A stretch of DNA of 64,000 bases from a virus. Positions 16,815 to 60,418 of this stretch are shown piece by piece (position 1 is the first letter of the stretch; every line of letters starts with the position of its first letter). The position numbers were made by a program, and so were the translations under genes. Location: positions 90,019 to 154,018 of the IMG/VR virus record IMGVR_UViG_3300037245_001320. The stretch is one strand, 5' to 3'. A model generated the notes under the pieces. That model did not search any database. It was not told where the DNA came from and saw nothing but the letters and a program-made list of their open reading frames with translations.

Positions 16815-17450
16815 TCATTGCTCCTCCATAACAAACGTTTCTTTATCCATAACTGATACTTTTGAGTTACCTGTAACACCCCTCGAAACAGAAAAGATTC
16901 TATTAGCTGTATTTTTAATCTCTTTAGAATGAGTTACAACAATAAACTGGATACCTAAGTTTTCCGATATTGTTTGGACCAACTGACAAGCTTTTTCTAT
17001 CTGCTCGTCCCCGATCGCTTTGAAGACCTCATCTAATATGAAAATTGGGGTTGGGTTTTTAGTCAAGGTTAATAAAGCAACTCGTAAAGCTAAAGAAGCT
17101 ATAGCCATTGCACCTCCACCAGAACTAGCCCTAAATGATTCTTCAATTCCGCTCTTATACAGTACAGGTGTTGCAGTAATATTATTGTTCTTAGATTCAA
17201 TCTTCATCTTAAACTCATACTCATCTCCGAAGACCGTCTGGATGGCAACCGATACAATATCATTAAACTTACTAGCTAACTTGTCTGTTGCTTCATTAGC
17301 TAATAACTGTGCAATCATAGTAGCTTCCTTTAAGTCTAACATTGTTTCATCTAATACCAGAACAGAGTTTTTCTTCTTTTCTAATGATTCAAGTAATGTG
17401 TGTTGCTTCCCTTTTCTTTGATTTAACTTATCCCTAAAATGATTTATCAT
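16815..17450 (-). CDS. sbcC: SbcC/Rad50 C-terminal half
   Basis: Signature SSGGG, Walker B FILDE, H-loop VVTH. Confidence 0.85.
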   Translation of the reverse strand: MINHFRDKLNQRKGKQHTLLESLEKKKNSVLVLDETMLDLKEATMIAQLLANEATDKLASKFNDIVSVAIQTVFGDEYEFKMKIESKNNNITATPVLYKSGIEESFRASSGGGAMAIASLALRVALLTLTKNPTPIFILDEVFKAIGDEQIEKACQLVQTISENLGIQFIVVTHSKEIKNTANRIFSVSRGVTGNSKVSVMDKETFVMEEQ

Positions 17451-18186
17451 TTCCTAATTTCCTCCTTGCTATTTCATAAGCTTTCAATCCAATATCACAA
17501 CCTATGAAATCTCTATTTAATTCTTTACACACTTCACCTGTTGTGCATGATCCCATATAGAAATCTCCGACTAAGTCTCCTTCATTAGAAGATGCTTTTA
17601 CAATTCTCCTTAATAAAGATAAAGGCTTCTGTGTGTTATACTCTCTTTTATTATGTAATGAGAAGTTACAATCGTCCCATACATTAGTTGGTATCTTTCC
17701 TCTCTTATATTTCTCAGGAGAGATTAACTGCCTCTTAGTCGTATTTAAATTAACCACAGATTTGTAAGGAACTCTTATGTCTTCTGTATTAAACACGAAG
17801 TCTTTAGATTTAGAATAAACTAATATCTGATCGTGCTTTTTAGAGAAATGTTTCTTATCTATTCCACCAACATTGTAACTCCAAATGATATAGTTAAGGA
17901 AGTTGTTGTACCCAAACACATCATCCATAATACATCTTATCCAATGAGAAATTCTATAATCCATCTGAAGATAGATAGTGCCTGTTTCAGATAGTACTCG
18001 ATGCATCTCTTTAATCCTTGGAACATAATGCTGGTATATGACTTCCTTATCAGGTTTTAAATCCTGAAAGTCTCTGAACTTCTTGCCAGTACCATATAAG
18101 CAATCGCAATATATTAGTTGAATATGATTAGCAGGGAGATCATTTAACAATTCAAGATTATCTTTATTGTATAATTCTAACATCAT
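17434..18186 (-). CDS. Beta-class N6A/N4C DNA methyltransferase (variant motifs)
   Basis: YCDCLYG at the DPPY position, TQKP..L, DFYMGSCTT. Confidence 0.8.
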   Translation of the reverse strand: MMLELYNKDNLELLNDLPANHIQLIYCDCLYGTGKKFRDFQDLKPDKEVIYQHYVPRIKEMHRVLSETGTIYLQMDYRISHWIRCIMDDVFGYNNFLNYIIWSYNVGGIDKKHFSKKHDQILVYSKSKDFVFNTEDIRVPYKSVVNLNTTKRQLISPEKYKRGKIPTNVWDDCNFSLHNKREYNTQKPLSLLRRIVKASSNEGDLVGDFYMGSCTTGEVCKELNRDFIGCDIGLKAYEIARRKLGNDKSF

Positions 18187-58155: not shown

Positions 58156-58512
58156 TTATAATTCCTCTATCTCATAACCACGAGCACTTAACATTTTAGC
58201 TAATATGTTTCTATGACAGAATTCATCAGGAGTCTCATAGCACAACAAAACAGAACCATGTTTAAATTCAATCCCATCTAATAAAGGCTCTACTTTCTTA
58301 ATGTATCTTTTTGTAAACTCTTCCTCTGTCATTTCACCTGATTTAAGTAACTTTATGTTATTCTTATCAGGAGCTATCTCAGGCATCTGTTCTACAGGAT
58401 AGAACCAGAAAGGGCTATATCTTGCTATAGATATTAGATAATCTTCTTTATCATCTAATACTATTTGCTTTACTTTAGGTGATGCAAAGTAACTTGTTCT
58501 TAGTCTTATCAC
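58156..58512 (-). CDS. DUF488-like protein
   Basis: TSYF, ISIAR..P, LLCYE..FCHR. Confidence 0.75.
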   Translation of the reverse strand: MIRLRTSYFASPKVKQIVLDDKEDYLISIARYSPFWFYPVEQMPEIAPDKNNIKLLKSGEMTEEEFTKRYIKKVEPLLDGIEFKHGSVLLCYETPDEFCHRNILAKMLSARGYEIEEL

Positions 58513-58654: not shown

Positions 58655-59437
58655 TCAATGTTTTTCTCCTTTTTTATTTATTCTTTCAGATGCAATATTA
58701 AAGTAATTCTCATCCAACTCTATACCTATAAAAGCTCTATTTAGATTCTTACACGCAACTCCAGTTGAACCTGATCCCATTGTGAAATCTAATACTGTAT
58801 CGCCTTCATTGGTATATGTTTTGATTAGATACTCCATTAGTGCAACTGGTTTTTGTGTTGGGTGTACTGCTGATTTCTGCTTGTCTGTCTTAAACTTTAA
58901 TACTGTTCTAGGGTATCTTTCTGTAGAATCATACCCTGTTAAACCATGTTCACCATAAACATCTGTCTTAACGCTATTTCTTTTATGTTCTGCTGTACTT
59001 ACTTTTCTTTCATGCCCTGTAGTTTTTTGAGGATTATATAAACAAGGCTTTTTATAAAATACACTAATTATTTCATTTGCTTTCATAGGCATTTTCTTAG
59101 CATTTAAATGTCCTGTAGCTGTGGTCTTTTCCCAAATCCAATCATACTTAAACTCTTTTAGGTTGCTCATTCGTAAATTACTGGAGAAGGGTTCTGATCC
59201 AAATAATACAATAGGAGTTGTATCTTTTCTTATTTTCCTTAATTTATCCCATAAACCCTCGATGCAAAGTTCTTTAAACTCATCTCTGATTAGTTCATAT
59301 GAATCGTAACTTGTTGAGAGTCGGTGAAGGATATACTCATTTTCATACATTACAACTTCTTTTTTTCCTTTTAATACTTTTATATACTTATTGAAAGGAA
59401 TGATTGAATCCCATTTACAGGCTGTTGTTCCAGTCAT
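58655..59437 (-). CDS. Beta-class DNA methyltransferase, C-terminal part
   Basis: GTTACKWD, HPTQKPV.L, DFTMGSGSTG, GIE.D. Confidence 0.85.
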   Translation of the reverse strand: MTGTTACKWDSIIPFNKYIKVLKGKKEVVMYENEYILHRLSTSYDSYELIRDEFKELCIEGLWDKLRKIRKDTTPIVLFGSEPFSSNLRMSNLKEFKYDWIWEKTTATGHLNAKKMPMKANEIISVFYKKPCLYNPQKTTGHERKVSTAEHKRNSVKTDVYGEHGLTGYDSTERYPRTVLKFKTDKQKSAVHPTQKPVALMEYLIKTYTNEGDTVLDFTMGSGSTGVACKNLNRAFIGIELDENYFNIASERINKKGEKH

Positions 59438-59580
59438 CCGTATGGAGGATCACAAATAATAGAATCAACCTTGATGTTGTTAGAAATTAAATAATCCATA
59501 ACTTCTAAGCATTCATCATTGTATAGCTCTGCTTTGCAGTCTCCATACGAAATAACCTCCTTTTTATAGTCTTTATTCAT
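59434..59580 (-). CDS. Beta-class DNA methyltransferase, N-terminal part (48 aa, ends DPPYG)
   Basis: LYNDECLEVM...VDSIICDPPYG*; its stop overlaps the ATG of the C-terminal part. Confidence 0.8.
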   Translation of the reverse strand: MNKDYKKEVISYGDCKAELYNDECLEVMDYLISNNIKVDSIICDPPYG

Positions 59581-60154
59581 TTACAAAATACTCCTTTATG
59601 TTTAATTTTAGGTTATGCCACTCATCTTGTGTCATATCATTCTTACAGCGATTCTCAAACCAAGACAAAAATTGTAAATTATTCAAGTCATTGTTTCCAC
59701 CTTTTGCCTTTGAAACTACATGGTCTATTGAGGGCTTTTTATATGCTTCAAAACCACTTACACACCATTTCTGATATACTGAATTAAATTGTTTTTGATT
59801 ATAGAACTTAGTTAAGTAGTCCTTGTACCACTCAGTGGTAACTTCCCATCTTCCACTTCTATTTGTAATAGCTTCATTTAAAAGTTTTAGCTTATTAAAA
59901 TCTTTAAATTGCATAAGATACCCAAAGCTCACATCAAATCTTAAATGAGTAGCCATGTTATTATAACGTCTTTCAGTGACACAATCAAACTTTTTCTTGC
60001 CTCTTAAATTTTTAGGTTTTCTAGTTTGTATATTTTCCCCTTTCAGTACTCTTGCTATAAGTTTATGATTAGTGCTGAACTTTAAAGCTATTTGCCTCAT
60101 TGACTTGCCCTTTTTATACATTTTACAAACTTCTTCTTTATTTATATTGCTCAA
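59573..60154 (-). CDS. HTH plus HNH endonuclease
   Basis: N-terminal HTH; PSIDHV...GG.N...NLQ...N..K. Confidence 0.8.
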   Translation of the reverse strand: MSNINKEEVCKMYKKGKSMRQIALKFSTNHKLIARVLKGENIQTRKPKNLRGKKKFDCVTERRYNNMATHLRFDVSFGYLMQFKDFNKLKLLNEAITNRSGRWEVTTEWYKDYLTKFYNQKQFNSVYQKWCVSGFEAYKKPSIDHVVSKAKGGNNDLNNLQFLSWFENRCKNDMTQDEWHNLKLNIKEYFVNE

Positions 60155-60174: not shown

Positions 60175-60325
60175 TGTATAAGAAAGACTTTAGTTTTAGT
60201 GGGTTAGTCCGTTTTCCAAGATCAGCTACTAAATCTTTTCAACTCCCACTAAAACTAAAGTCTCTATATACCTTCAGTTATTTACGATTATTGTAGCTTT
60301 TTTCTTTATCAAAGAAGGACTAGTT
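60175..60325 (-). promoter_or_regulatory. Structured leader with a perfect 19-bp stem and two-box loop pairing
   Basis: Stem 60185-60203/60245-60263; loop boxes complementary to 60293-60298 and 60317-60322. Confidence 0.65.
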
Positions 60326-60341
60326 CTTTTACTCTATCTCT

Positions 60342-60418
60342 ATTATAGCATAGTGGGAATTTTTTTGATACTTCGTTGGAGTTTTAAGAAATTCAACGGT
60401 TTTTGCCATGAATAAGTG
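60342..60418 (-). promoter_or_regulatory. CCCACTATG promoter (one mismatch) plus 24-bp conserved box
   Basis: Same layout as 42917-42993. Confidence 0.75.

Follow-up and report, generated by a model that had tools for sequence, protein, structure and literature searches.

A mobile HNH endonuclease element in phage DNA methyltransferase genes, with a short stop-opened coding gap at the DPPY codons: a candidate family of programmed translational bypassing

In the current analysis we have examined a DNA methyltransferase gene encoded in a 64,000-nucleotide stretch of a viral genome (IMG/VR record IMGVR_UViG_3300037245_001320, positions 90,019 to 154,018, the final 64 kb of a 154-kb viral contig), referred to below as the window. 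The gene is interrupted directly after the codons for its catalytic DPPYG motif by 8 extra nucleotides that open with a stop codon. Inserts of 4 to 11 nucleotides at the same DPP/Y/G position have been identified in 110 loci, in the methyltransferase gene lying beside a gene for an HNH endonuclease. The best interpretation of these alleles, and one that the sequence comparisons make fairly probable, is that ribosomes bypass the short gap in a programmed manner and that the gap at the same time renders the locus immune to its own nuclease. Slightly better than even chances are given to the wider proposal that the group represents a second, evolutionarily independent family of natural bypassing, in which an HNH homing element sits on the catalytic-motif codons of phage methyltransferases and combines helix-driven stop hops of 4-11 nucleotides with self-immunity.

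At the interruption the minus strand of the window reads GAT CCT CCA TAC GGA TGA CT GGA ACA ACA GCC TGT AAA TGG GAT. The closest uninterrupted homologues of the window methyltransferase are encoded in the contigs L003 and L004 (86% and 71% amino acid identity), and DNA alignment shows that both lack the 8 nucleotides and read DPPYGTTACKWD. An original prediction, made from the letters of the window, had described a methyltransferase split after DPPYG by GGA-TGA-CT-GGA, the return of the canonical sequence on removal of 8 nucleotides and an HNH gene immediately upstream; all of these are borne out. The open reading frame (ORF) of the C-terminal piece (58655-59437) comprises 260 amino acids when counted from the ATG of the ATGA overlap and matches PF01555 (E-value 7e-31) over profile positions 32-220, including FTMGSGST. 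With DPPYG in the N-terminal piece (N piece) and these profile positions in the C-terminal one, the motif order is that of the beta-class N6/N4 methyltransferases, and the joined reading is collinear with the homologue P0002.

The HNH gene immediately precedes the methyltransferase gene, whose first 8 nucleotides it overlaps. Its product has an HTH_38 helix-turn-helix (HTH) domain and a match to PF01844 (E-value 5e-4) that, at 20.5 bits, lies slightly below the cut-off of 21.4; its relatives in L006 and L110 exceed this cut-off (23.6 and 32.4 bits), and the PHROG families matched by the window protein are those of endonuclease VII / HNH. The GGA preceding the stop is matched by a second GGA at the end of the insert. 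The exact 11-mer has a single occurrence in the window, with near matches only at chance level, and the case therefore rests not on one window copy but on the recurrence of the arrangement.

A homologue search with the window methyltransferase covered 5.8 billion proteins, and the closest homologues all carry the uninterrupted DPPYGTTACKWD. One homologue, P0010, starts with out-of-frame residues, and its contig, L005, shows a 4-nucleotide insert (TAC TGA C GGA) preceded by the C-terminus of the same HNH protein. The loci have therefore been gathered through the HNH protein: 2 at first, then 80 metagenomic and 49 viral ones with an alignment as query, about 130 in all, and 9 more from genome bins. 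The gap has been measured by scanning for the codons of D-P/L-P...W-D, for which the uninterrupted spacing is 36 nucleotides. This spacing is seen only in L003, L004 and a few genes beside very distant HNH relatives. Among the 110 loci the gap lengths are +9 (46 loci), +6 (37), +10 (13), +4 (6), +5 (3), +7 (3), +8 (1) and +11 (1). The last sense codon is directly followed by an in-frame stop in 109 of them; the exception, L058, has CAA at position 855, where its relatives have the TAA that starts the +10 gap, and a stop several codons later in the old frame.

Removal of near-duplicates left 59 complete non-redundant alleles. Their gaps are opened by TGA (28), TAG (18) or TAA (13), and they fall into three classes according to the last sense codon, referred to as the take-off codon: Gly (TAC GGN stop ... 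GGN ACN; 40 alleles), Pro (CCN stop YYN TAY GGN; 16) and Tyr (TAC TGA C/T/AT GGA; 3). In most complete cases the downstream frame is open for 200-235 amino acids to a natural stop. A pattern search blind to the HNH gene retrieved 16 viral contigs. In 15 of these an HNH homologue immediately precedes the gene; 9 of the 15 were in the collection before, and 6 were newly confirmed. The sixteenth, L143, is too truncated for the presence of an HNH gene to be judged. A search of the viral contigs for the exact insert gave no match, and the family was reached only through the HNH protein. Dozens of homologues carry an insert of the kind that the original prediction had described for the window gene.

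The collection also includes variants of the arrangement. A +7 allele (GGA TGA C GGG ACC) at position 1197 of L162, a contig binned with a Parcubacteria genome, is the sole other GGA take-off seen. The 2.7-kb contig L120 encodes two methyltransferase copies (positions 288 and 1884), both with a +10 gap (GGC TAA CTTA GGC), and a partial HNH gene between them. L097 and L098 (sites 916 and 3184) read TAC TGA TAA T/C TGA ACN ACN, where a second TGA replaces the Gly codon and the HNH gene is decayed; this variant is probably a dead copy. In L125 and L126 (position 3322) a distant HNH relative (35% identity) stands beside an uninterrupted methyltransferase with the altered motif DLPFGITACKWD and neither gap nor helix; the target site may have been evaded by substitution, or the specificity of the nuclease may be different.

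A scan of a genome collection yielded only short contigs from metagenome-assembled genomes, with further examples including GGA TGA C GGG and no tractable isolate, and no cultured phage in the collection has the full cassette. Cultured phages contributed two partial examples only. Pseudoalteromonas phage H101 encodes the HNH gene and a separate intact methyltransferase. In Vibrio phage VnaP (ON212104; L138, 2304-3121) a 40-amino acid N-terminal remnant of a methyltransferase ending in DLP-TAA is followed by a promoter-like sequence and an HNH homologue, the body being gone, and from its sequence the locus looks like a decayed copy of the element. The two 'DNA methylase' features of Lactococcus phages (H23) were rejected as relatives; they represent an unrelated split that does not fall at DPPY and has no HNH gene.

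The length of the gap is frame-independent and is not conserved modulo 3 among close relatives. Out-of-frame gaps are present in 14 of the 59 alleles (27 of the 110 loci) and characterise whole lineages, namely the +10 lineage and the +4/+5 alleles of the Tyr class, and the cassette lineage of the window includes gaps of +8, +9, +10 and +11. Relatives whose N pieces are 83-96% identical differ by 1 nucleotide in gap length, with all the downstream frames open: L078 (TGA GGA, +6) and L119 (TAA T GGA, +7), whose N pieces are 96% identical; L009, L010 and L016 (+9) and L020 (+10); L006 and L062 (+9) and L049 (+10).

No ATG, GTG or TTG is found in the downstream frame after the stop in 46 of the 59 alleles. 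If the ribosome hops from the last sense codon onto the triplet that precedes the resumed reading frame, the exact DPPYGTTACKWD is obtained in every allele, and this landing triplet is one with which the take-off tRNA could pair. All 40 Gly alleles have NGN at this position, 35 of them GGN. The 16 Pro alleles have YYN throughout, which could form G.U pairs with the NGG anticodon of tRNA-Pro, and the 3 Tyr alleles all have NAY. The base 3' of the stop is C in 37 of the 59 alleles; a C following the stop is the weakest termination context in E. coli.

The two parts of the window gene differ in their closest relatives. The last 30 amino acids of the window N piece are 83% identical to N pieces of the cassette lineage (L010, L016) and 63% identical to the N-terminus of L003, while the body of the window gene shares 83% amino acid identity with the uninterrupted L003 over 254 aligned codons. 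The bodies attached to such cassette N pieces are only about 45% identical to the window body. The same mismatch is seen family-wide, N pieces of 85-96% identity being joined to bodies that are only 60-65% identical. At 71 of the 88 assessable loci the HNH gene is closely preceded by what is left of a different, resident methyltransferase N-terminus, truncated at DPP(Y); in L006 this remnant is immediately followed by a TTGACT-17-TATAAT promoter. The window copy has no resident remnant, and its HNH gene follows the phage's own leader. From the remnants and the N-piece/body mismatch the element therefore consists of the HNH gene, a spare N-terminus with an extension and the gap, placed in a resident gene where this encodes DPPY. 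Movement of the element into a defined target is thus evidenced at the level of sequence, with the HNH gene, the spare N-terminus and the gap sitting inside resident methyltransferase genes.

The spare N-terminus is under purifying selection at the protein level. Within cassette lineages the ratio of non-synonymous to synonymous substitution rates (dN/dS) lies at 0.06-0.23, and none of the N-termini has lost DPPY or DLPY, the underlying codons changing synonymously and with compensation in a helix described below. Decay of the HNH ORF is seen in 11 complete cases, and in 8 of these (L007 and L133 among them) both the gap and intact methyltransferase frames are retained.

Gap alleles carry an N-terminal extension that is absent from uninterrupted methyltransferases. 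A box in this extension, located about 100-125 nucleotides upstream of the take-off codon, is the reverse complement of the DPPY(G) codons, and in 59 of 59 alleles it pairs with the 11-20 nucleotides that end at the take-off codon. The duplex has a median energy of -24.8 kcal/mol (z -4.5) over the 59 alleles and is better than all 100 shuffles in 49 of them. No such signal has been found in uninterrupted genes, in the gene beside a distant HNH relative or in 12 resident N-terminal remnants (z -1.6 to +1.6). RNAalifold recovers the helix from 39 sequences of the Gly and Tyr classes with compensatory changes at 6 of 9 pairs, one of which occurs as C-G (13), U-A (13), A-U (3) and G-C (2). In a 19-pair version 81.5% of the cells are paired, and sliding of the partners lowers this fraction to 32-43%. 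Double-change cells number 73, against 24 expected from shuffles (0 of 500 shuffles). The frequent G.U pairs suggest that the helix is formed by RNA rather than DNA.

For the window the duplex energy is -17.4 kcal/mol, equalled by 1 of 100 shuffles. The minimum-free-energy fold (-37.7 kcal/mol, z -3.1) includes the helix, and its pairing continues through UGA CU to 59432, the base before the landing codon. A helix ending at the landing codon is found in the window and several other alleles and is not general. The window helix differs from that of its closest cassette relative, L016, by three fully compensated pair changes. A perfect Shine-Dalgarno-like AAGGAGGT is located in the N-terminal extension at 59556-59563, about 120 nucleotides upstream of the take-off codon; it occurs at the same position in most Gly-class loci, is conserved across lineages and in the window fold partly pairs with the gap.

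On the basis of these comparisons, the element comprises the gene for an HTH-HNH homing endonuclease, a spare 5' end of the methyltransferase gene (about 45-60 codons, to DPP, DPPY or DPPYG), an N-terminal extension pairing with the last 11-20 nucleotides before the break and a stop-opened gap of 4-11 nucleotides. It occupies the DPPY-coding site, with the body of the resident methyltransferase continuing after the gap. The target of the nuclease is predicted to be intact DPPYGTTACKWD-coding DNA; the gap disrupts this site, so that a carrier would be immune to its own nuclease. In translation of the window allele, a ribosome with peptidyl-tRNA-Gly on the first GGA and the poorly terminating UGA-C in its A site would pause, the tRNA would release, the mRNA would slide 8 nucleotides over UGA CU and the tRNA would re-pair with the second GGA. 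Decoding would restart at ACA and lead to the normal DPPYGTTACKWD protein.

The helix is predicted to stimulate the bypass. Its upstream arm, free behind the ribosome, would pair with the emerging RNA of the take-off region and probably drive or bias the forward slide, following the idea of RNA pairing on the exit side as a driver of bypassing (bioRxiv 10.1101/2024.12.09.627546). The slide may be limited to roughly the length of RNA still held in the ribosome, a conjecture that agrees with gaps of 4-11 nucleotides. The original prediction had offered, as separate explanations of the window insert, a stop-hop and an edit abolishing the target site of the HNH enzyme. Both agree with the comparative data, and in our reading they describe one device, the insert being the right-hand end of a mobile HNH element; the specificity of the nuclease, the hop and its efficiency and the role of the helix are those parts of it that we infer from sequence.

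The closest known system is the mobA/gene 60 cassette of phage T4, in which, according to the account in a 2022 survey (Manning & Atkins, bioRxiv 10.1101/2022.08.31.505936), an HNH homing endonuclease is combined with a 50-nucleotide bypass in the gene for the large subunit of topoisomerase II. That survey, describing Bonocora et al. 2011, presents mobA and the gene 60 gap as a mobile cassette whose gap protects against the nuclease. The T4 element is described there as splitting the topoisomerase gene and contributing an N-terminal extension together with a replacement for the homologous segment; its gap opens with a stop, the take-off codon before it being one for Gly (or Asp), and closes at a landing codon that matches. 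The methyltransferase element resembles it in having the HNH gene directly upstream, an element-borne N-terminal coding segment overlapping the nuclease ORF, a gap that begins some 46-48 codons after the start of the downstream ORF, a Gly take-off codon with a stop behind it and a matching landing codon. In both, some clades have the take-off codon at an adjacent residue, the gap lies in a highly conserved and catalytically important region where it is thought to block self-cleavage, and gaps are retained beside decayed nucleases.

The two systems differ in the target gene, which here is a PF01555 methyltransferase interrupted at its motif IV, and in the nuclease, whose HNH motif is C-terminal behind the HTH here and N-terminal in MobA. 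BLASTP of the window HNH protein against T4 gp60.1, the C-terminal part of MobA, gave an E-value of 0.45 and no similarity beyond the motif. The gaps are of 4-11 nucleotides (8 in the window) as against 20-50, too short to accommodate a take-off stem-loop or an internal Shine-Dalgarno sequence; their place is taken by a covarying long-range helix between the upstream box and the take-off codons. Unlike in T4, the enzyme would not be left as two subunits, since the element supplies a complete replacement N-terminus. As judged from sequence, the methyltransferase element is an independent analogue that falls outside the MobA family.

Among natural candidates with short gaps, the closest are the UUA-led inserts of 7-10 nucleotides in three terminase genes of Streptomyces phages, as they are presented in PMC10732093. 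In the terminase gene of phage phiHau3 two 10-nucleotide frame-breaking inserts were described and bypass was proposed (PMC10732093, citing Smith et al. 2013). As in the methyltransferases, short gaps interrupt an essential, conserved phage gene whose flanks are contiguous in relatives, a slow-to-decode codon opens the gap and a 5' structure, there a stem-loop, is the proposed stimulator; the same account states that a stop codon could replace the rare codon in E. coli. In contrast to the present family, the phiHau3 gap is opened by the rare sense codon UUA, only three such genes are known, no homing endonuclease is known to take part, a helix supported by covariation has not been reported, and the role proposed is a regulatory one in lysis-lysogeny sensing.

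The proposed hop has in common with the stop-hops and hungry-codon hops engineered in E. coli (Weiss et al. 1987 and subsequent studies, outlined in the review PMC5009743) a peptidyl-tRNA that leaves a codon beside a stop and re-pairs with a matching codon a few bases downstream irrespective of frame. The engineered cases are low-efficiency reporter constructs without dedicated signals, whereas the present alleles are natural and inherited and have a conserved helix. In Aeromonas phage Aeh1 the nrdA gene is split by the free-standing homing endonuclease gene mobE (as related in bioRxiv 10.1101/2022.08.31.505936). There too a nuclease gene lies inside a conserved enzyme gene and a fix supplied by the element retains the function, as would be the case here. 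Two polypeptides reassemble via added tails in Aeh1, while the present family lacks a restart codon and the element would rebuild a single reading unit with a mini-gap only.

Several observations weigh against bypassing. In-frame gaps predominate (45 of 59 alleles), a majority that we attribute to descent from few founders. The exact restoration and the matched Gly codons are partly a consequence of construction, because the N piece of the element overlaps the resident body by one codon. Landing triplets AGC or CGC (5 of the 40 Gly alleles) and RAY in the Tyr class match in 2 of 3 positions only, and the CUN and UUN triplets of the Pro alleles require G.U pairs. The role of the helix in the hop is conjectural, because at take-off most of its 3' arm sits inside the ribosome. 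The polypeptide spanning the gap is a prediction from the reading frames, and unprogrammed short hops have been described as low-level (PMC10732093). The body of the window gene looks constrained and perhaps slightly relaxed: a three-taxon count gives 30 synonymous and 25 non-synonymous changes on the window branch and 43 and 21 on that of L003, a difference that is not significant (p = 0.19). Six of the 68 alleles whose body runs to the stop are broken downstream. No two non-redundant alleles share a body of more than 75% identity, and the open frames may therefore reflect recent invasions rather than later selection.

The last two observations, together with the near-identical cassettes on very divergent bodies, are also those expected if the gap only destroys the nuclease target, the invaded methyltransferase is inactive and the intact frames mark recent invasions by a purely selfish element. 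The resident remnants that are still recognisable, the Vibrio phage VnaP locus with its remnant and HNH gene only and the second, unrelated PF01555 methyltransferase of the window phage all agree with such a dead gene. We nevertheless consider it unlikely. It leaves unexplained the purifying selection on the spare N-terminus with its unfailing DPPY, the helix that is specific to gap alleles and co-evolves with the take-off codons, the stop that opens nearly all gaps, including those in frame, and the landing triplets that stay pairable, and the frames that stay intact beside decayed HNH genes speak against it. For the window allele the original prediction had also offered a coupled two-chain enzyme. 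In this case termination at UGA would be followed by restart at the overlapping AUG, and a 48-amino acid DPPYG peptide would assemble with the 260-amino acid body. The ATGA is indeed there, genes of this phage often overlap in such a stop/start manner, and enzymes split by homing endonucleases, such as Aeh1 NrdA and T4 gp39/gp60, are on record (among the cases named in bioRxiv 10.1101/2022.08.31.505936). Such a restart is possible in the window. It cannot be what the conserved device depends on, since a start codon downstream of the stop is lacking in 46 of the 59 alleles, and the window ATG exists only because the take-off codon happens to be GGA. No Shine-Dalgarno sequence precedes this AUG, which lies within the helix with its A paired, and the split would fall in the catalytic loop. 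A two-chain enzyme is therefore regarded as improbable even for the window allele.

Conventional recoding, that is read-through of the in-frame gaps, +1 or -1 frameshifting at the others or a reassigned stop, would suit the in-frame majority and the leaky context of a stop followed by C. It is very improbable in view of the gaps themselves. TGA read as sense (genetic codes 4 or 25) leaves the window in a wrong frame that is not homologous, and all three stops are used in the family. A shift by one base would not correct gaps of +4, +5, +7, +8, +10 and +11, and slippery runs are absent. Read-through fails for the out-of-frame alleles and in the Pro class would insert 2 residues between DPP and Y. 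Removal before translation, either by an RNA polymerase that skips the gap or by helix-guided cutting and rejoining of the mRNA, could draw on the 3' arm of the helix, which ends at or in the gap, and on the short repeats that flank the gap. These repeats, of 2-3 nucleotides, are too short for re-annealing of the transcript, a near-universal stop in a weak context is a translational feature and we know of no mechanism for the excision of 4-11 nucleotides; the probability of this explanation is accordingly minimal. The window is a single metagenomic contig, which leaves a practically negligible chance of an assembly or sequencing artefact: a non-repetitive insertion of 8 nucleotides is not a typical sequencing error, and comparable inserts occupy this site in 110 independent loci that come from many samples. 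Programmed bypassing accordingly stays the interpretation that we favour for the family.

Table 1. Positions of the element and of the interrupted methyltransferase gene in the window
Feature	Position	Strand	Evidence and remarks
HTH-HNH endonuclease gene, 193 amino acids; nuclease of the mobile element	59573..60154	-	ORF; Pfam and PHROG matches
Methyltransferase N piece, 48 codons ending in DPPYG and followed by TGA, with N-terminal extension	59434..59580	-	ORF
Helix 5' arm UUCGUAUGGAG, within the N-terminal extension	59541..59551	-	Duplex computation, minimum-free-energy fold, family covariation
Helix 3' arm CUCCAUACGGA, last base at the end of the take-off codon	59437..59447	-	Duplex computation, fold
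Take-off codon GGA, Gly of DPPYG	59437..59439	-	
Coding gap, 8 nucleotides	59429..59436	-	TGA 59434-59436, CT 59432-59433, landing GGA 59429-59431
ATG overlapping the stop (ATGA), possible restart codon	59435..59437	-	ORF list
Resident methyltransferase body, resuming at ACA (59426-59428) ACA GCC TGT AAA TGG (TTACKWD)	58655..59428	-	Open to natural stop

The surroundings of the gene in the window contain further features. DUF488 genes are located downstream of the methyltransferase both in the window (58156-58512) and in L003 (1013-1728), and the upstream neighbours differ, a 5'-nucleotidase gene being found in L003 and the HNH element behind a helicase gene in the window. A 270-nucleotide gene-free stretch between the DnaB-like helicase and HNH genes contains a long perfect inverted repeat, agactttagttttagtggg ... 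cccactaaaactaaagtct (60175-60362). The second PF01555 methyltransferase of the window (17434-18186, minus strand) is intact and has the motif DCLYGTG and not DPPYGTT, and would not offer the same target sequence. A frameshifted region similar to single-stranded DNA-binding proteins lies at 41.5-42.4 kb.

We have found no description of the methyltransferase gap family in the literature, and the T4 gene 60 cassette was still called unique in the 2022 survey (bioRxiv 10.1101/2022.08.31.505936). Efficient natural bypassing has so far rested on this one case. A second family, if true, would add natural variation in the form of dozens of lineages, three take-off residues, three stops, gaps of 4-11 nucleotides and a covarying helix, which could be used to test what makes ribosomes release and land, as well as mRNA-exit pairing as the driver of the slide. 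It would also represent a general strategy by which a selfish nuclease invades the most conserved part of a gene, brings a spare gene end and hides its target behind a gap that is neutral for the protein. Since gene callers split or discard these methyltransferases, the methylation capacity of phages is likely to be under-annotated.

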